DNA from: Acidobacteriota bacterium
GTDB lineage: Bacteria; Acidobacteriota; Thermoanaerobaculia; UBA5066; Gp7-AA6
Direction: 5' to 3'
Assembly: GCA_046725935.1 (NCBI GenBank)
Contig: JBKOZO010000090.1
Span: forward strand, 1-60,808
Length of the DNA: 60,808 bases
Below, one piece after another: positions 2,788-12,047 of this stretch. Each line of letters starts with the position of its first letter. The first letter of the stretch is position 1. The translations under genes were made by a program, and so were the position numbers. Below the pieces are notes generated by a model. That model saw only the letters and a program-made list of their open reading frames with translations, had not been told where the DNA came from and made no database searches.

Positions 2788-3222
2788 ATGGCTGTCGAGC
2801 CACGCCGTGCTTCGGAGTTCGTCTACGCGATCACGCGGGTCATCCTCGGCCTTCTCTTCGCTTGCCATGGCGCGCAAAAGCTCTTCGGCGTGCTGGGGGG
2901 ACAGCGCGCCACCGAGCCTCTCATGATCTTCGGCGGCGCGATCGAGTTCTTCGGAGGAATTCTGATCGCGCTGGGCCTCGCGACGCGGGTCGCTGCCTTC
3001 CTGTCGTCCGGCGAGATGGCCGCGGCGTACTTCATGGCGCACGCGTCCGGAGGGTTCTGGCCGATACAGAACAAGGGAGAGCTCGCCGTGGTCTACTGCT
3101 TCGTCTTTCTGCTCATCGCGACGCTGGGCGGCGGACGCTACAGCATCGACGCCTTGATCCGCGCCCGCCGGCCGCCCGAGCACGGCCTCGGCGAGGCGGC
3201 GCTGCGCATGGCGAATCGTTAG
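2788..3222 (+). CDS. DoxX family membrane protein
   Basis: HGAQKLFG, EFFGGILIALG, NKGELAVVY motifs; the ATG at 2788 follows a purine-rich RBS. Confidence 0.85.
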   Translation: MAVEPRRASEFVYAITRVILGLLFACHGAQKLFGVLGGQRATEPLMIFGGAIEFFGGILIALGLATRVAAFLSSGEMAAAYFMAHASGGFWPIQNKGELAVVYCFVFLLIATLGGGRYSIDALIRARRPPEHGLGEAALRMANR

Positions 3223-3261
3223 GCAAGATGCCGATGGTGCGGGCTTCGTGCCCTCGAATTA

Positions 3262-4268
3262 CTAAGGCCGAGTCTGGTCTGCACTGCGGCTGCTAACCGA
3301 CGGGGACCGCTCTCTGCTGTCGTCGGGCGCGTCGAGCGCCCCTGAAAACGTCGCGCGCGGCATCGACGCCAGTGTCGCCGGCCAGCCCTGTCTCACGCTG
3401 GGCAGCTCCGGCCTCCACGAGCCCGCGTCGCGCAGCTTCCGGTTCGAGATGCGGAGCGACCGCGACATCAGCTCTCCGAGAGAACCCATCGCCCGCGTGA
3501 TCCAGGCCGGCGGAAACGTGGGAGGCGCCACGCCGAGAGTGTGCGCCAGGCTATCGAATACTCGCGATGCGTCACGGGCTCGTCGTCGGCGACGTTGTAG
3601 ATCCCCGCCGGCAGAGCCAGGGCCGCCGCTGCGGCACGCGCGGCGTCGTCGTGCGAGACCGACGAGATGAACGCCTGCGGAGGTCCCGGAAGCGGAGCGA
3701 AGCCGCGGCGCACCGAACGCACGAAGTCCTGGAGATGCCGCGCGTCCGGTCCGTAGAACGCGGCGAACCGCAGGACGACTCCGGTCCGTCCGGAACCCGA
3801 GAACTCTTCCGCGGAGCGCTCGGCGTCGAGGATCGTCCGGTTGTAGCGGACGGGTCGGACGGGATCGGTTTCGACAATCCAGTCCTCGCCGCGCGAGACG
3901 TAGATCGGTGCGAAGGACTCCTGGACGAACCGTGCGACGCCCGCGGCCGCGGCCTGTCTCGCGAGGAGGGTGGAGGCGATGCGGCGGATGCGGTCGTTCT
4001 CGCGCCAGGCTCCGGGCAGGAACATGCGGAAAGTCGAGGCCGGCATGTGCGTCGCGAGGTTCACGACGGCATCCTGGCCGGAAACCGCGCGCGCGACCGC
4101 GGTGGGATCGAACAGGTCGAGATCCACGGCGGCCGCGCCGGCGCTCTCGAGGGCGGCCCGCTTCTCGGGAGTTCGCGCCGCGGCCATGACGACGTGTCCC
4201 GCCTCGGCCAGCAGGGGAACGACGCGGCGTCCGACGACGCCGCTGGCGCCGGTTACGAGAACTCGCAA
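3262..4268 (-). pseudogene. NAD-dependent epimerase/dehydratase with a 1-nt frameshift near 3557 (real pseudogene or sequencing error)
   Basis: TTG start with GGAGG; VLVTGASGVVG. Restoring one T at TAT-TC (3557-3558) joins ORF 3468-4268 to ORF 3262-3531 as EYFDSLAHTLGVAPPTFP, giving 335 aa. Confidence 0.8.
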
Positions 4269-5029: not shown

Positions 5030-7648
5030 CTACTCCGCGCGCAAGGCGGCCGCCGGGTCGATCCGGGCGGCACGTCGCGCGGGAACGTAGCTCGCGAGGA
5101 GCGCGATCGCGAGAAGGCCTGCGGCCACGGCGGCGTAGGTCGCGGGGTCCGTGGGCGGCACGCCGTAGAGCAGGCTGCGCATCATCCGCGTCAGGACGAG
5201 CGCCGCCGCGAGGCCGGCGAGGGCGCCGGCGGCGGCCACGGCCATCCCCTGTCCGACGATCAGCCGGAGCACTTCGGCCGGCCGGGCGCCCAGGGCCATG
5301 CGCACACCGATCTCACGCGAGCGTCTCGAGACCGCGTAGCTCATGACGCCGTAGATGCCGACCGCGGCCAGGAGCGCCGCCGCCGCCGCGAAGACCACGA
5401 GGAGCCACGTCTGGAAGCGCGCGCGTCCGTTGGCCTGCGACACGATCTCCGGCATCGTCTGGACCGCGGAGACCGGAAGTGTGGGATCGAGGCTCCGGAC
5501 GGCGGAGCGCAACGACGGGGCGAGGGAGGCCGGATCGCCGTCGGTCCGGACCACGAACGTGGCGTACGCCTCCTGCGGGTGGGGCGAATTCATCAAGGCT
5601 CGACGTTGGGGCAGCGCCAGGTAGGCCTCGTCTTCCGGCGACTCGCTCCACTCCGAGCGCACGACGTTGCGGACGACGCCGAGGACCGTGAGCCAGGAAG
5701 GGTCGTCGTCCGGACCGTCGAACGCGATGCGCTTTCCGATCGGATCCTCGCCCGGCCACGTGCGCATGGCCAGGAACTCGTTGACCAGGACGACGCCCGG
5801 CGCGTCGGCCGTGTCGCCCGGCGAAACGTCGCGGCCCCGCAGAATCGGAATCCGCATCGTCTCGAAGTAACCCGGCATCACCGCGCGATAGGTCGCCGTC
5901 GGCGTCTCGCCGGGCCTCGGAATCGGACGGCCCTCCACGAGATAGGGCAGGCCCCAGGTGTCGCCGGCGATCGGGACGTGATTGATCGCGCCGGCCGCGC
6001 GGACTCCGGGAATGGCCCGGAAGCGCTCCAGGATCTGCGGATAGAGGACCGCGCGGCGGCCGGGCGCCGCCTCGGAGGTGCCGGCCACGGAAACCTCGAG
6101 CGTGACGACGCCGCGGGGATCGAAGCCCGGATCGATCTTCTGGAGCGCGACGAAGCTGCGGGCCATCAGGCCCGCGCCCACCAGGAGAACGAGCGCGACC
6201 GCCACCTCGAGCGCGACGAATACGCGGCGCATCCGGCCGCTTTCGCGTCCCGCTCCCGCGGCTCCGCCTTCCTTGAGGGCGTGCTGGATGCGCGTGGCCG
6301 AGGCCTGGAGCGCGGGAGCCAGGCCGAACGCAACGCCCGTCAGGAGAGAGACGCCGAGGGTGGCGAAGAGGACGCGCAGATCCAGTCGGACGTCGTGGAG
6401 GCGCGGGATCGACTCGGGCGCGACGGCGAGCAACGCCTTCAGTCCCCATGCGCCGAGAGCGACTCCGGCCGCACCGCCCACACACGAGAGGACCAGCGAT
6501 TCGGTCAGCAGCTGCCGGATGAGCCGGCCCCGGCCGGCGCCGATCGCCGCCCGCAGCGCAATCTCGCGCTGCCGCGCCGATGAGCGCGCCAGAAGCATGT
6601 TGGCGACGTTGGCGCAGGCGATGAGGAGCACGAGCCCGACGGCGCCCAGGAGAACGAGGAGCGCGGGACGCACGTTGCCGACGACTTTCTCCTGCAAGGG
6701 AATCACGCGCACGTCGCGGTTGGTTCCGGGGAACTCGCGTTCGAGGACAGCCGTGACCGCCGCGACCTCGCGCGCCGCCGCCGCGACCGACACGCCTTTT
6801 CGCAGACGCGCGAAGACGCGCAGGCTCGAGCCCTCTCGGCTGCCCGCGCGTTTGGCGAGATCGAGCGGCGCCCACATCTCGGCATCCGTGGCCCAGAAAG
6901 GGGCGAACGCGAAGTCCGGCGGCATCACGCCGATGACGGCATAGCTCTCGCCGTTCAAGGTGACGGTCGAGCCGACGACGTTCGGATCACCGCCGAAGCG
7001 GCGCTTCCAGAGGCCGTGCGAGAGAAGGACGACGTGGTCGCGACCTGCGCTCCCCTCATCCCCGGAAAAGAAGCGGCCGGCGAGGGGAGCCACTCCCAGC
7101 ATCGGCAGTATCTCCGGCGTCATCCGCAGGGCCGAGAGCTTCTCCGGCGTGTCGCCGCTGGTGAGGTTGGCCGACCAGGCTTCCGCGGCCCCCATGCTCT
7201 CGAAGGAACGGGCGCGGGCTTTCCAGTCGAGAAAGTTGGCCGGAGCGACCGGGTTGTATCCGCGATGGAGCAGGACGACCAGGCGCTCGGGGTCGGCGTA
7301 GGCGAGGGGACGCAGCAGAATCGCGTTGACGACCGAAAGGATCGCGGTGTTCGCGCCGATCCCCAGCGCCAGTGTCAGGATCGCCACGGCCGCGAAGCCG
7401 GGGGAGCGGCGCAGCATCCGGAAGCCGTAGCGCATGTCGCGAGCGACCTCCGAAAGCCGCGGGAAGCGCCACTGCGCGCGCGTGACCTCCTTGACGAGCG
7501 CCTCGTTGCCGAGCTCGCGTCGGGCCGCGGCGAGGGCCTCCGCGGCCGTCTCTCCCCGGGCCACGCGATCGGCCGCAGCCATGCGGACGTGCGTCCGGAT
7601 TTCCTCGTCGAGCTCGCGTTCGCGCCGCCGCCGGAAAAGGTCGAGCAT
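5030..7648 (-). CDS. ADOP family duplicated ABC permease (MacB-like) with N-terminal permease-prefix extension
   Basis: TLALGIGANTAI, LLLIACANVANMLLAR, REIALRAAIGA, GIYGVMSYAV, EIGVRMALGA, terminal DPAAALRAE. Confidence 0.92.
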   Translation of the reverse strand: MLDLFRRRRERELDEEIRTHVRMAAADRVARGETAAEALAAARRELGNEALVKEVTRAQWRFPRLSEVARDMRYGFRMLRRSPGFAAVAILTLALGIGANTAILSVVNAILLRPLAYADPERLVVLLHRGYNPVAPANFLDWKARARSFESMGAAEAWSANLTSGDTPEKLSALRMTPEILPMLGVAPLAGRFFSGDEGSAGRDHVVLLSHGLWKRRFGGDPNVVGSTVTLNGESYAVIGVMPPDFAFAPFWATDAEMWAPLDLAKRAGSREGSSLRVFARLRKGVSVAAAAREVAAVTAVLEREFPGTNRDVRVIPLQEKVVGNVRPALLVLLGAVGLVLLIACANVANMLLARSSARQREIALRAAIGAGRGRLIRQLLTESLVLSCVGGAAGVALGAWGLKALLAVAPESIPRLHDVRLDLRVLFATLGVSLLTGVAFGLAPALQASATRIQHALKEGGAAGAGRESGRMRRVFVALEVAVALVLLVGAGLMARSFVALQKIDPGFDPRGVVTLEVSVAGTSEAAPGRRAVLYPQILERFRAIPGVRAAGAINHVPIAGDTWGLPYLVEGRPIPRPGETPTATYRAVMPGYFETMRIPILRGRDVSPGDTADAPGVVLVNEFLAMRTWPGEDPIGKRIAFDGPDDDPSWLTVLGVVRNVVRSEWSESPEDEAYLALPQRRALMNSPHPQEAYATFVVRTDGDPASLAPSLRSAVRSLDPTLPVSAVQTMPEIVSQANGRARFQTWLLVVFAAAAALLAAVGIYGVMSYAVSRRSREIGVRMALGARPAEVLRLIVGQGMAVAAAGALAGLAAALVLTRMMRSLLYGVPPTDPATYAAVAAGLLAIALLASYVPARRAARIDPAAALRAE

Positions 7649-7667
7649 GGAGACATCCTACAGCCAT

Positions 7668-7688
7668 GGATGTAGACCGCCTACATCC
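7668..7688. promoter_or_regulatory. Perfect 8-bp inverted repeat, candidate repressor operator upstream of the ADOP gene
   Basis: GGATGTAG-accgc-CTACATCC, in the expected -35 region of a minus-strand promoter whose -10 (TAGGAT) is at 7660-7655. Confidence 0.55.
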
Positions 7689-7689
7689 T

Positions 7690-7918
7690 CGGAGAGGGAT
7701 ACGCCCTCCTGGCCCTGAGGTTTCGCAGCGGGTTGACCCGTCCCCCGTCGCGGGCGTAGCCTTGTCGAGGCGCCGCACTCCGGCCGTCACCCGCCCGATC
7801 CGACCCCTCCTCGGATCCTCGGCGCGGGGAAAAGGGGGATGTCCCCGGAGATGGGTTGGTTTGTCTTTGACCGCGGCTGACGCGGGGAGGGGACGCGGCA
7901 ACCGCCGTCGAGGACGAC
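7690..7918 (+). ncRNA. Candidate structured 5' leader RNA (unassigned)
   Basis: At least 6 hairpins in ~230 nt; the last one (GTCG-AGGA-CGAC) overlaps the SD just before the ATG at 7919. Confidence 0.35.
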
Positions 7919-8488
7919 ATGCCGACCAACCTGAAGAAACTGGTTCGGGCCCGGATGGATAAGACGGGCGAGAGCTACGCCACGGCGCTGCGCTACGTAC
8001 GCCGGCGCGGCGCGAAGGTTCGACGCTCCGACGCTCCCGCGAAGGGCCCGATCCGTTCCCACCGCATTCGGTATCCCGGCGCCGTTCGCCGCGACCCGGC
8101 GATCGACGCCTTCGTCCGCTCGGTCGATGCGCCGCTCGGAGCCACGCTCTCGCGGCTCGTCTCTCTCATCCGCTCGGCCGTTGTCGGGCAGGACGAGGTC
8201 CTGTTTCGCGGCGCGCCTTCGTTCTGCCTCGAGGGCGAGCCGTTCTGCTACCTCGTCGGCTACGCCGGACACGTGAAGCTCGGCTTCTGCGATGGAGCCT
8301 CGCTTTCGGATCCCGCCGGATTGCTTCGAGGCAAGGGCAAGTACATGCGCCACGTGCGGCTGTCGCCCGGAGATCCCTTTCCGGCGGCCGCGATCGCGGA
8401 GCTCGTCGCGCAATCGGTGCGCCGCGTGCGCGCGCGCCAGCACGAAGATCCCCGCGGAGCCCGGGAGGTGCGCGATGCGAAGCGCTAG
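7919..8488 (+). CDS. DUF1801 (YdhG-like) protein with N-terminal KKLVRARMDKTGESY helical module
   Basis: The C-terminal PFCYLVGYAGHVKLGF...GASLSDPAGLLRGKGKYMRHV is typical of DUF1801. Confidence 0.75.
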   Translation: MPTNLKKLVRARMDKTGESYATALRYVRRRGAKVRRSDAPAKGPIRSHRIRYPGAVRRDPAIDAFVRSVDAPLGATLSRLVSLIRSAVVGQDEVLFRGAPSFCLEGEPFCYLVGYAGHVKLGFCDGASLSDPAGLLRGKGKYMRHVRLSPGDPFPAAAIAELVAQSVRRVRARQHEDPRGAREVRDAKR

Positions 8489-9449
8489 GAAGCGGATTGG
8501 CCGCGGGCTGAAAGGCAAAGTCGCGCTCGTGGCCGGCGCCACGCGCGGGGCCGGCCGCGGGATCGCGTGCATGCTCGGAGAGGCGGGAGCCACGGTCTAT
8601 TGCTCGGGCCGGAGCACGCGAGGGCATCCGCCCCGCGAGGGGCCGTATGCGGGTCGGCCCGAGACGATCGAGGAAACCGCGGAGATGGTCACGGCACGCG
8701 GAGGCGTCGGAATCGCCGCGCGCACGGACCATCTCGTGATCGAGGAAGTCCGGCAGCTCGTCGCCCGCATCCGGCGCGAGCAGGGACGGCTCGACGTCCT
8801 GGTCAACGACATTTCCGAGGGCGTCCTCCACGACTGGAAGCCGTTCTGGAAGGTCGATCTGGAGAAGGGATTCCGGGCGCTCAAGCAGGGAGTCGAATCG
8901 CACATCGTCACGAGCCACTGCGCGGCGCCACTGATGATCGAGAAGGGCGGCGGCGTGATCGTCGAGATCACCGACGGCGACTTCCTCGCCTACCACTCGA
9001 CTCTGTTCTACGACCTGGTCAAAACCAACGTGAACCGCCTCGCCTTCGCCATGGCCAACGAGCTCGCGCGCCACCGCGTAGCGGCGATCGCGGTCACCCC
9101 AGGATTCATGCGCACGGAGGCGATCCTCGACCGCCTCGGCGTCACCGAAGCGAACTGGAGAAAGGGCGTGAAGAAGAACAAGCACTTCGCCATGTCCGAG
9201 ACGCCGTTCTTCGTCGGACGAGCGGTCGCGGCATTGGCCGCGGACCCGAAGGTCATGGAGAAGTCGGGCGGCGTGTTCGCGTCGTGGACACTTTCGGATG
9301 AGTACGGCTTCACGGACGTCGACGGCGCGCGGCCGCACTGGGGGAAGTACGCCGCGGGTCGCTTCGACGACATGATCAAGTCCAAAGTCCCGTTCGACTG
9401 GACGCTGACGCGGAAGGCCAAACCCGACCGGCGTCGAAGGACTTCATAG
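8475..9449 (+). CDS. SDR family oxidoreductase (DHRS1-like)
   Basis: VAGATRGAGRGIA, LDVLVND, FYDLVK, AVTPGFMRTE; ATG at 8475 with GGAGG, overlapping the upstream stop. Confidence 0.88.
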   Translation: MRSARKRIGRGLKGKVALVAGATRGAGRGIACMLGEAGATVYCSGRSTRGHPPREGPYAGRPETIEETAEMVTARGGVGIAARTDHLVIEEVRQLVARIRREQGRLDVLVNDISEGVLHDWKPFWKVDLEKGFRALKQGVESHIVTSHCAAPLMIEKGGGVIVEITDGDFLAYHSTLFYDLVKTNVNRLAFAMANELARHRVAAIAVTPGFMRTEAILDRLGVTEANWRKGVKKNKHFAMSETPFFVGRAVAALAADPKVMEKSGGVFASWTLSDEYGFTDVDGARPHWGKYAAGRFDDMIKSKVPFDWTLTRKAKPDRRRRTS

Positions 9450-9593: not shown

Positions 9594-12047
9594 ATGGACG
9601 TGTTTCTCCAGGACGTGCGCTACGCGTTGCGAGGACTTCGGCGGGCCCCCGGGTTCGCCGCCGCGGCGATCCTGACGCTGGCCCTGGGGATCGGCGCCAC
9701 GACCGCGATCTTCTCGGTCATGCGGGCCGTGCTCTTCTCGCCGCTGCCGTACGCAGACCCCGACCGCCGCGTCATGATCTGGAGCCGCTGGAAAGACTTC
9801 GACAAGACCTGGGTCGCCAACGGCGAGATCGTCGACTACCGCAAAGCGTCCACGACTCTCGAGAAGATCACGATGTGGGACCTCGACGAAGCCAACCTGA
9901 CGGGCAGCGGATCAGAGCCCGTCCGCGTCGGAGTGGGTTCCGTGGAAGCGGACACCTTCGAGACTCTGGGGTCCGGTCCCATTCTGGGGCGCACGTTCAC
10001 GCCGGAGGAAGACCGCCCCGGCGGACCGCCCGTCGCCGTTCTGGGATACGGCCTGTGGCAAAACCGCTACGGGGGAGATCCGCGCGTCGTCGGCGAGTCC
10101 ATCGAGCTCGACGGCGTGTCGCGGCGCGTCGTGGGAGTCATGCCCCGCGGCTTCGCGCTCCCGACCGACTACACGGTGTCCTCGTCGTCGCCGACGCAGC
10201 TGTGGATTCCGCTCCAGACGGATCCGAAGGATCTGACCCACGGCAATCACGGCTACTACGGCGCGGCCACGCTCGCGCGGAGCGCTACGGCGGCGAAGGC
10301 CACGCTGGAGCTGAAGACGATCACGTCGAACTGGACACGGGACGGCCTATATCCACCCGAGATGCGGTTCGAAGCCTTCGCGGTTCCTCTCGAGGACGAG
10401 ATCCGCGGCACCGCCCGCAAGGCTCTGACGCTGGTCTTCGGCGCGGTGGGATTCCTCCTCCTGATGGCCTGCGGCAACGTCGCGAATCTTCTCCTCGCGC
10501 GCTCGGAGGGAAGGCAGCGAGAGATCTCCGTGCGGGCCGCGATCGGCGCCGGCCAGGCGCGCTTGACGCGGCAGCTTCTGACCGAGAGCTTCGTCCTCGC
10601 CGCCTGCGGCGCGCTCGCGGGCGTGGGCCTCGCGTGGGCCGGCGTGCGCGCGATCGCCGCTCACGGCGCGGCGGGTCTTCCGTTGCTCGCGCCGATTCGC
10701 GTCGAGCCCGGGATTCTCCTGTTCGCCGGAGCCCTCTCCGTCCTGACGACCTTCCTCTTCGGGCTCGGTCCCGCCATCCAGATGCTCCGCCTGAACCTCT
10801 CCCAGTCTCTCCGCGAGGACGCCCGCGGCTCTTCGGCCGGGCTGCGCCGCCAGAGCCTGAGGGGCGTGCTGGCCAGCGTGCAGATGGGATTGGCTCTCGT
10901 CCTCCTGCTCGGCGCCGGACTCCTGCTTCGAAGTCTCGGCGCGCTCCTGCGCGTCGATCTCGGCTTCGAGCCGCGCCACGTCGTGACGCTGCAGCTGCGG
11001 CCGCCGGAGGCCGGCTACGCGAAGCCCGAGGCGGTCGCGGCTCTGTATCGGACGCTGCTCGAGCGCGTCCGCGGATTGCCGGGAGTCAGGTCCGCCGGAA
11101 TCGTGCGCTCCCTGCCGCTGGCGGCGTCGATCGGCGACTGGGGACTCGACGTCGAGGGTTTCGTCGAGACGCCCGGCCACAACGCCAAGGGAGACTGGCA
11201 GGTCGTCTCCGACGGGGCGCTCGAGGCTCTCGGCGAACGCGTCCTCCGCGGCCGACCCTTCGCCGAATCGGACACCGCGTCCTCGCTCCCCGTGGCGCTG
11301 GTCAACGAGACCTTCGCCCAGATCTACTGGCCCGGCCAGGACCCCATCGGCCGCCGCATCCGCATGGGTTCCGATAACGACCAGCGGCCGTGGATGACCG
11401 TCGTCGGCCTGGTCCGCAACGTGCGGCACAACGGCATCACGGAGATCATCAAGGAGAAGTTCTACGTGCCCCATTCCCAGTTCGCGCTGCAGACGGGCAA
11501 TACGCCCCGCAACATGACCCTGATCGTGCGGGCGGACGGGGACCCGCTCTCGCTCGTGGGCCCGATCCGGTCGGAGGTCCGGCGGCTCGATCCCAACCTG
11601 CCGCTCGCCAACGTCCGCACGATGACGCAGGTCGTCGACGCCTCGCTCGCCACGCCGAGGCTGACGTCTTTGCTGCTCTCGCTCTTCGCCGCCGTGGCCC
11701 TGCTGCTCGCGGCGGTCGGCGTGTCGGGCGTCCTCGCGTACCTCGTCAGCCGGAGACGCCGGGAAATCGGGATTCGCTTGGCCCTGGGCGCCTCGCGCGC
11801 CAACGTCCTGAATCTGATCCTTCGGCGGGGAATGCTCACGGCGGGCATAGGGGTCGCCGCCGGGCTCCTCGCGGCGCTCCTTCTCTCACGCCTGATGGAA
11901 GGTCTTCTCTACGGGGTGCCTGCGCGCGATCCCGCGACTTTTGCCGGCGCGGCGATGCTGCTGCTGGCCGTCGCGCTCGCCGCCAGTGCCGTCCCCGCCC
12001 TTCGGGCGTCGCGCGTGGATCCCCTGGAAGCCCTGCGGGCCGAATAG
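9594..12047 (+). CDS. ADOP family duplicated ABC permease (MacB-like)
   Basis: TLALGIGATTAIFS, LLMACGNVANLLLAR, REIGIRLALGA, terminal DPLEALRAE. Confidence 0.92.
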   Translation: MDVFLQDVRYALRGLRRAPGFAAAAILTLALGIGATTAIFSVMRAVLFSPLPYADPDRRVMIWSRWKDFDKTWVANGEIVDYRKASTTLEKITMWDLDEANLTGSGSEPVRVGVGSVEADTFETLGSGPILGRTFTPEEDRPGGPPVAVLGYGLWQNRYGGDPRVVGESIELDGVSRRVVGVMPRGFALPTDYTVSSSSPTQLWIPLQTDPKDLTHGNHGYYGAATLARSATAAKATLELKTITSNWTRDGLYPPEMRFEAFAVPLEDEIRGTARKALTLVFGAVGFLLLMACGNVANLLLARSEGRQREISVRAAIGAGQARLTRQLLTESFVLAACGALAGVGLAWAGVRAIAAHGAAGLPLLAPIRVEPGILLFAGALSVLTTFLFGLGPAIQMLRLNLSQSLREDARGSSAGLRRQSLRGVLASVQMGLALVLLLGAGLLLRSLGALLRVDLGFEPRHVVTLQLRPPEAGYAKPEAVAALYRTLLERVRGLPGVRSAGIVRSLPLAASIGDWGLDVEGFVETPGHNAKGDWQVVSDGALEALGERVLRGRPFAESDTASSLPVALVNETFAQIYWPGQDPIGRRIRMGSDNDQRPWMTVVGLVRNVRHNGITEIIKEKFYVPHSQFALQTGNTPRNMTLIVRADGDPLSLVGPIRSEVRRLDPNLPLANVRTMTQVVDASLATPRLTSLLLSLFAAVALLLAAVGVSGVLAYLVSRRRREIGIRLALGASRANVLNLILRRGMLTAGIGVAAGLLAALLLSRLMEGLLYGVPARDPATFAGAAMLLLAVALAASAVPALRASRVDPLEALRAE

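Follow-up and report, generated by a model that had tools for sequence, protein, structure and literature searches.

The 60,808-nucleotide (nt) stretch of DNA analysed here, hereafter the window (positions 1 to 60,808 of contig JBKOZO010000090.1, Acidobacteriota assembly GCA_046725935.1), contains at positions 7772-7933 an element that is very probably a real cis-acting structured leader RNA of about 150 nt, coupled to a 30-residue basic module that forms the N terminus of the protein encoded directly downstream. This element is probably an autogenous operator, i.e., a cis-acting structured leader through which a protein controls its own gene, and we give autoregulation by the module itself a chance at, or slightly below, even. 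What is new is that a leader is paired, in modular fashion, with a short peptide at the N terminus of proteins whose cargo is unrelated. An earlier note on this DNA had pointed to the interval 7690-7918 as a hairpin-dense leader of about 230 nt that resembles no recognised riboswitch and that may travel with the basic N-terminal module of the downstream protein.

The structure is supported by comparative data. We aligned 126 non-redundant leaders with MAFFT without supplying any structure (alignment A7), defined the structure on one member, L064, and then counted the pairs. In this alignment 83.7% of the cells form standard pairs, against 33-53% when the 3' partners are slid by 1-3 columns, and changes on both sides are present in 46 of the 56 pairs. 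The number of compensatory cells is 486, compared with 131-217 in the slid controls, and none of 500 shuffles reached the observed values. The structured leader proposed in the earlier note is thus supported by covariation on a structure-blind alignment, and the upstream regions of genes carrying the module do share covarying structure. The frequent G-U pairs, together with covariance-model matches that occur only on the gene strand, fix the RNA strand as plus. The leader and its helices are, in window coordinates:

7772-7933, plus strand: whole leader RNA, from P0 to codon 5; matched by covariance models R1 (7772-7948) and R2 (7772-7933), on the plus strand only
7772-7784, plus strand: P0, hairpin GCCG/CGGC; 85.5% paired, with GC, UA and CG variants; present in the minimum-energy fold
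7778-7781 (CUCC) with 7847-7850 (GGAG), plus strand: P1, closing the three-way junction
7790-7796 (CCCGCCC) with 7821-7828, plus strand: P2a, enclosing the P2 hairpin
7797-7803 (GAUCCGA) with 7811-7817 (UCGGAUC), plus strand: P2, with loop CCCCUCC at 7804-7810
7834-7850, plus strand: P3 hairpin and 3' strand of P1; GGGG 7835-7838 with CCCC 7843-7846, loop AUGU; 97.8% paired
7854-7860 (GGUUGGU) with 7925-7931 (ACCAACC, codons 3-5), plus strand: P4, enclosing the AUG; found in the RNAalifold and minimum-energy folds
7862-7871 (UGUCUUUGAC, the strand opposite the Shine-Dalgarno (SD) sequence, or anti-SD strand) with 7907-7916 (GUCGAGGACG), plus strand: P5, holding the SD, GAGGA 7910-7914
7873-7905, plus strand: P6, GCGG 7873-7876 with CCGC 7902-7905, and its apical stem, CGCG 7881-7884 with CGCG 7894-7897
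7804-7810 (P2 loop) with 7886-7892 (GGAGGGG, in the apical loop 7885-7893), plus strand: kissing helix of 7 bp

The overall architecture is a three-way junction (P1, P2a/P2 and P3) followed by a long hairpin (P4-P5-P6), with a purine-rich joiner, GAAAAG, after P2/P2a and before P3. Covariation in P1 is evident from pair 12-127 (AU 73, GU 15, GC 12, CG 8, UA 4) and pair 13-126 (UA 102, CG 14). P2 is 89.7% paired and all six of its six pairs have changed on both sides (e.g., GC 48, AU 46, GU 21), and P3 occurs in other subtypes as GAGG/CCUC or GGGGA/UCCUC. The kissing helix, which measures 7-8 bp in the family, is 86.5% paired, with changes on both sides in seven of its eight pairs; its loops occur in sets such as CCCCAGC/GCUGGGG, CCUCGGC/GCCGAGG, CCUCCGGC/GCCGGAGG and CCCACGC/GCGUGGG, as well as CCUACGC/GCGUAGG, CUCACGC/GCGUGAG and CCGCCUC/GAGGCGG, and even within the genus a pair that is U-A or U-G in relatives is C-G in the window. 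For the window copy, the minimum-energy fold recovers all the nested helices except P1, which is replaced by a different closing helix. In some leaders (L068, L071, L078 and L097) an extra hairpin of 15-30 nt lies between P2 and the 3' strand of P2a; judging from these insertions, this site is one that tolerates expansion, like the variable stems of other structured RNAs.

The helices of the 3' half involve the signals for translation initiation. The P5 helices are 82-91% paired in the family, and the U/C of the anti-SD strand covaries with the A/G of the SD (UA 48, CG 26). In the common form of the family the equivalent of P4 is GCAUCG/CGAUGC, which contains the AUG itself; the conserved Met-Pro start is explained by the pairing of the AUG and the Pro codon in this form. 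Judging from these pairings, the conserved fold is an "off" state for translation initiation: the SD is base-paired, and the AUG is either base-paired or enclosed. In 84% of the cells the core CAAAGG could instead pair with the anti-SD strand to give an alternative "on" state, but covariation in this pairing does not exceed chance, and the closed fold is the sole conformation with covariation support. A strict consensus scan of the gap found neither a promoter nor a terminator. Because the SD and AUG lie in covarying helices, and there is no terminator between the RNA and the gene, any control should act at initiation; and since the closed fold, alone in having covariation support, hides the SD and pairs or encloses the AUG, anything that stabilises it would repress translation.

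These results also allow the individual stems proposed in the earlier note to be evaluated. The interval it flagged is indeed non-coding and lies within a 270-bp divergent gap (7649-7918), and the leader RNA is real; it had, however, to be trimmed to 7772-7933, which excludes the first ~80 nt. All the stems that the note listed can be read in the sequence, but three of them fall outside the element, in unconserved DNA upstream of the predicted RNA start: GAGGG/CCCTC near 7693-7707, CGGG/CCCG, which overlaps the predicted -35 box at 7733-7738, and GCCT/AGGC, which overlaps the predicted -10 box at 7757-7762. The stem GATCCGA-N7-TCGGATC corresponds to P2 and GGGG..CCCC to P3, and the conspicuous U-rich segment supplies the 5' strands of both P4 and P5. 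By contrast, GCGG-caa-CCGC competes with the comparative P6 pairing, and the SD, which the note had placed in a local GUCG/CGAC hairpin, pairs instead with the U-rich segment.

Hairpin density, the original argument for the leader, is within chance for G+C-rich DNA: the fold z-scores are -1.63 (plus) and -0.58 (minus) for the whole gap with the first codons (7649-7930), and -1.28 (plus) and -0.13 (minus) for 7772-7933. In DNA of this composition stems like those listed are expected by chance, and we have therefore rejected hairpin density alone as evidence, the single-sequence folding statistics not being significant. An RNA on the minus strand was likewise rejected, on its z-score of -0.13, the gene-strand-only model matches and the frequent G-U pairs. 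Close relatives are not informative either: RNAalifold gives 51 pairs for 13 same-genus leaders without a single double change, as these leaders are too alike for the structure to be testable from them, and model R1, which was built from same-genus sequences, matched only orthologues in 400 genomes of the class. The view that the leader is no recognised riboswitch has held. A search of window positions 7400-8200 against Rfam 15 at E<=10 returned only four chance-level matches (11-19 bits, against gathering scores of 40-71), and for 20 diverse loci there was no Rfam 15 match at the gathering score or at E<=1. A literature search, the coverage of which was incomplete, found no description of this RNA family.

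The 5' boundary of the element follows from comparisons within the genus. In a DNA search of 40 related genomes the gap was found in 10 genomes of the same genus, in which the leader DNA (7772-7930) is 84-92% identical, against 58-81% for their DUF1801 protein; the leader identity stays in this range even where the protein identity is as low as 58-62%. Upstream of 7772 nothing is conserved in the genus alignment save -35-like (TTGACn/TTGCnn) and -10-like (TAGnnT) hexamers at fixed positions; the stretch between 7772 and the ATG is nearly invariant, and conservation then persists for ~32 codons before it collapses. The conserved block running from 7772 into the coding region thus consists of the RNA fold, up to ~7933, and the peptide module, up to ~8014. 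As read from this alignment, the first ~80 nt of the interval flagged earlier (7690-7771) is promoter or unconstrained DNA. The predicted promoter elements are:

7733-7738, plus strand: predicted -35 box, TTGACC; a hexamer at fixed distance in the leaders, its position kept in the genus alignment
7757-7762, plus strand: predicted -10 box, TAGCCT; its position kept in the genus alignment

When 121 leaders are aligned on the first base of P0, a T-rich -35 hexamer (TTGACG/TTGCnn) appears at a fixed distance, and in most loci an A/T-rich -10 hexamer ends 6-9 nt ahead of the RNA's first conserved G. The spacer between the two is 17 nt in 85 of the 121 leaders and 18 nt in the window, and the promoter score of the 121 leaders is 9.47, against 6.30 for shuffled sequence. 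Given a positionally conserved promoter just before P0, the RNA probably begins at the transcription start, which in the window would probably be at about 7769-7772, ~147 nt before the ATG.

The second component of the cassette is the N-terminal module of the downstream gene:

7919-8014, plus strand: coding region of the N-terminal module, MPTNLKKLVRARMDKTGESYATALRYVRRRGA; conserved at the peptide level
7919-8488, plus strand: cassette gene (189 residues), encoding the module, a low-complexity linker and a DUF1801 cargo (PF08818, residues 75-167)

The module is a basic peptide of 30 residues with the consensus M[PT]xxKDxKRxVRxRMxKTGE[SA]Y; the version in the window is MPTNLKKLVRARMDKTGESY, within the basic segment MPTNLKKLVRARMDKTGESYATALRYVRRRG at the N terminus of the cassette product, and it is single-copy in the genome. 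The third codon positions of its invariant R, K, T, G, E and Y residues are free, and Ser is encoded by both TCN and AGY codons, a pattern indicating that the module is selected as a peptide. In view of these free third positions a coding cause was accepted for the nucleotide conservation of residues 6-32, and RNA structure was rejected as its cause. AlphaFold2, run with an alignment of 41 orthologues, predicts helices at residues 3-16 and 20-38 (predicted local distance difference test of 81-93 for this block), then a disordered linker and a confident DUF1801 core. The module is accordingly predicted to form a separate helical hairpin; no PDB chain matched it in sequence below E=0.4.

The claim that the leader travels with the module is supported from the RNA side, from the protein side and in an independent sample. 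On the RNA side, we searched with the exact 22-base pattern AGGCAAAGGGGGGNNNACTCCCGGA. Among the matches listed, at least 120 species, spread over six phyla or more, carry it in their genomes; most are Gemmatimonadota, and the other carriers belong to the Acidobacteriota, Planctomycetota, Chloroflexota, Actinomycetes and the candidate class Krumholzibacteriia, and include the cyanobacterium Moorena bouillonii. In 77 of the 79 matches with enough downstream DNA, the module follows ~100 nt after the RNA. The two RNAs without a module gene look, from their sequences, like decayed cassettes: L156 (about 3021-3300) has a tandem duplication in the kissing-partner region (GCTGGGCGCTCCGTCCCC twice) and is divergent thereafter, and in L157 only the 5' domain is left. 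At another locus, L130, the leader is intact, and the cassette gene is apparently truncated soon after the module (...KTGEAYTALTAGGPRR followed by a stop), possibly as the result of pseudogenisation or of an assembly error.

On the protein side, scanning metagenome contigs with back-translated peptide patterns gave 80 loci, seven of which are orthologues, while the other 73 match only residues 1 to ~30. In most of these 73 loci R1 has a match immediately 5' of the module, and on inspection the loci have a common fold with differing stem sequences. Of the 76 protein-pattern metagenome loci for which 85 nt or more of upstream sequence is available, 75 have an RNA that ends at codon 5, a count that rests on inspection and R1 matches, since many of the 76 helped to build model R2. 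In the independent sample of 301 Acidobacteriota genomes, 16 genomes had a total of 17 sites matching a module profile of 32 positions, and R2 detected the RNA at 17 of 17. DUF1801 homologues that do not have the module have no RNA upstream, even when the search filters are switched off; the RNA therefore follows the module and not the cargo. Among the ~170 RNA instances examined, a gene without the module lies downstream only of the two degenerate copies.

Cassettes occur once, or rarely twice, per genome, and in 12 genomes and in 41 relatives R2 matched only the leader copies, one or two in each genome. A genome of the Gemmatimonadales (G424) has two cassettes ~26 kb apart (L267 and L270), with DUF4287-type and BtrH_N-type cargo, respectively. 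Their kissing-loop pairs differ (CCCCAGC/GCUGGGG versus CCCUGCGC/GCGCAGGG), a difference that may prevent cross-pairing of the two leaders.

The variability of the cargo, also anticipated in the earlier note, is extensive: including DUF1801, at least six domain architectures follow the module, and these proteins share the N-terminal module only. The most common architecture in the 73 loci is DUF4287 with AHSA1/SRPBCC (~225 residues); the others comprise BtrH_N with DUF4872 (~435 residues), an LCM methyltransferase (~305 residues), DUF5701 and an HNH/endonuclease VII protein. A conserved downstream operon is not supported, as 31 of the 82 loci do not have a co-directional open reading frame within 150 nt and the other loci are mutually different. 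At the protein level, 3,809 clusters at 50% identity reach E<=0.001 for the module family. In database proteins the module is located either at residue 1 or ~60 residues in, where the gene caller read through the leader. Proteins P0033 and P0061, and entries with the module at residues ~60-92, are open reading frames extended through the G+C-rich leader, which adds between 15 and ~70 spurious N-terminal residues (e.g., VARGGDAALAVEDDMPTNL). Many public entries of the module family thus probably have wrong start codons, and for annotation it is of importance that gene callers often read through the leader, adding ~60 false residues to module proteins. A word-indexed search scored on residues 1-40 returned mostly DUF1801 orthologues and, in addition, one 319-residue protein with other cargo. 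This protein (P0065, JGI sample 3300050046) has a window-like module in front of a non-DUF1801 cargo and is encoded a few kb from a relaxase/TraI gene, a proximity that hints that some cassettes may ride on conjugative elements.

How might the leader and the module act together? All the intact RNAs found are accompanied by the peptide, a module lacking the RNA turned up a single time, and the RNA ignores the cargo; on the simplest interpretation, the peptide itself would be the ligand that stabilises the RNA. According to the mechanism we propose, the newly made N-terminal helical hairpin would bind its own leader, recognising either the conserved junction or, in a Rop-like manner, the kissing complex. 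The constancy of the peptide in the face of varying kissing-loop sequences suits a peptide that recognises shape, as Rop does, or one that recognises the conserved junction. The closed fold would be stabilised by this binding, resulting in autogenous negative feedback on initiation, and a peptide located at the N terminus could, while still nascent, act on the message that encodes it. The unit of ~240 bp formed by promoter, leader and module could thus be joined to many genes and be movable from gene to gene. To this full mechanism, in which the module binds its own leader and represses its own translation, we assign a probability just short of one half. The wider proposal, by analogy with the systems discussed below, is that of a transferable feedback device in which the nascent hairpin clamps the kissing fold, acts preferentially in cis and has been moved across unrelated genes of soil bacteria belonging to several phyla; it is somewhat more tentative, falling on the doubtful side of even. 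In a bolder version of the proposal, the leader would persist as an RNA subunit of the mature protein.

Several observations weigh against binding of the leader by the module. The module matches no known RNA-binding family in Pfam or PDB sequence searches; at E<=10, three module variants retrieved no relevant Pfam family, and specifically no CAT_RBD or ANTAR domain. In a mutual-information analysis, module residues and RNA columns were associated only through subfamily splits and codon overlap, and the window copy of the trimmed RNA (7772-7933) folds no better than shuffled sequence. Co-occurrence could also reflect a shared partner rather than direct contact. Moreover, the junction nucleotides ACCUC, GGCAAAGGGG and CCCGGA are conserved across phyla as they are in metabolite riboswitches. 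Indeed, a small-molecule or ion riboswitch, in which a metabolite bound to the junction would keep the SD and AUG hidden by stabilising the fold while the module has a separate role such as tethering of the cargo, would account for a conserved, covarying, aptamer-like fold in a 5' untranslated region, for junction sequences kept in at least six phyla, for an expression platform that is integrated with the fold, and for the tertiary contact between loops, features also seen in known translational riboswitches. Competition between the core CAAAGG and the SD for pairing with the anti-SD strand would be possible in the 84% of cells noted above, but the missing covariation in this pairing counts against it. 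A riboswitch would also be expected to control genes with a metabolic or transport theme, whereas the cargo is functionally heterogeneous and the downstream genes are not conserved; there is no regulon, given one or two copies per genome; and among ~170 instances none precedes a gene without the module, apart from the two degenerate copies. We therefore regard a riboswitch as unlikely. Somewhat more doubtful still is that the leader has no ligand and serves for tuning of translation or stability, as an RNA thermometer, or as the target of a trans-acting factor (a global RNA-binding protein or a small RNA), the module being co-inherited merely because the fold reaches the first codons. The fold does include codons 1-5, so that there is a physical overlap between the RNA and the beginning of the gene, and the closed state alone has covariation support. 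However, the pairing needs codons 1-5 only, whereas conservation at the protein level extends over residues 6-30, which invariably go with the RNA, and strict coupling across cargo swaps is not what one would expect of a generic stability element.

That the leader, perhaps after processing, stays on the module as a scaffold or functional RNA for the cargo enzymes, forming a ribonucleoprotein, appears improbable. The RNA and the peptide are mutually dependent, the cargo includes enzymes of nucleic acids such as the HNH/endonuclease VII protein as well as a methyltransferase, and the two cassettes of the Gemmatimonadales genome have different kissing-loop sequences, all of which would fit such a complex; but the 3' part of the fold is a ribosome-binding site with a start codon, as fits control of initiation, and most of the cargo is of the DUF4287/SRPBCC type, which has no known link to nucleic acids. 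We consider it highly improbable that the conserved block is a DNA operator bound by the module as a protein of the helix-turn-helix or ribbon-helix-helix-like type. This idea draws on the pattern of helix, G-x-S turn and helix in the module, but compensatory changes in the stems and in the long-range loop-loop pairing, together with G-U pairs, which would read as C-A on the other strand, point to a single-stranded RNA fold, and the conserved block lies downstream of the promoter.

The closest known systems to the proposed autogenous control by the module are the autogenous translational operators, i.e., the pseudoknots of S15 on rpsO, of L20 on the rpmI leader and of S4 on the alpha operon, and the operators of T4 gp32, RegA and ThrRS. 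As in these systems, a structured and often pseudoknotted leader overlaps the SD or AUG of the gene of its presumed binder, and control would be exerted at initiation, without a terminator. In the case presented here, however, the presumed binder is a 30-residue module of unrelated proteins and not a whole dedicated RNA-binding protein, and, in contrast to the classical ribosomal-protein operators, no second (primary) RNA target or mimicry of one was found with R2 in 12 genomes. Another parallel is provided by Rop/Rom of the ColE1 plasmids, which acts in trans on the kissing complex of RNA I and RNA II, two separate RNAs that control replication. Both systems have a small protein with a helical hairpin (predicted in our case) and a loop-loop helix of ~7 bp, in which the loop sequences vary while the protein is constant; they differ in that there is no sequence similarity, the kissing takes place within a single mRNA leader and the peptide is part of a larger, cargo-bearing protein.

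The leader also resembles translational riboswitches such as SAM-II and preQ1-II, in being a compact pseudoknotted fold of a 5' untranslated region that includes the ribosome-binding site and has a junction conserved across phyla, but it has no Rfam match, and its downstream genes share a peptide and not a pathway. Finally, the CAT domain of BglG/SacY with the RAT RNA, the ANTAR domains, and the arginine-rich N peptide of lambdoid phages with boxB are units that mediate antitermination on other transcripts. They have in common with the cassette a short basic N-terminal unit (its RNA binding being putative here) that operates with a leader RNA and can be combined with different C-terminal domains. 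In contrast to them, the only copy of the RNA in the genome lies here on the mRNA of the protein itself, and the module has no Pfam match to CAT_RBD or ANTAR.

Irrespective of the mechanism, a large family of structured RNAs is missing from Rfam 15, and it is tied to a peptide instead of to a pathway. If the peptide is indeed the ligand, the cassette would be a compact and portable autoregulatory device, a natural modular RNA-peptide pair setting the expression of arbitrary cargo; this would be of interest to RNA biology and to the study of how gene regulation evolves, and might provide a part for synthetic biology.

In the window, the cassette gene is flanked by the following genes:

5030-7648, minus strand: ADOP-family duplicated permease (TIGR03434, with permease-prefix domain), starting at 7648
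8475-9449: SDR oxidoreductase gene (NCBIfam model PRK08303), sharing 14 nt (8475-8488) with the 3' end of the DUF1801 gene

The 14-nt overlap suggests that the SDR and DUF1801 genes are co-transcribed and translationally coupled in this genome. Two genes for ADOP-family duplicated permeases (5030-7648 and 9594-12047) lie on either side of the cassette operon; the upstream one is common to only four of the 10 genus relatives, so that the neighbourhood of the cassette is not fixed. Just upstream of the start of this minus-strand permease, at 7647-7692, there is a set of interlocking repeats: an 8-bp inverted repeat (GGATGTAG at 7668-7675 and CTACATCC at 7681-7688), a further copy of the repeat (ACATCCTACAG at 7654-7664) and a directly repeated unit of 23 nt. 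In the permease mRNA, CUACAUCC could pair with either of the flanking GGAUGU sequences, the downstream one of which overlaps the likely SD (AGGA). These repeats, which may serve the permease as its operator or as a switch in its leader, are kept in the three relatives that have this permease, with one compensatory change in G005.

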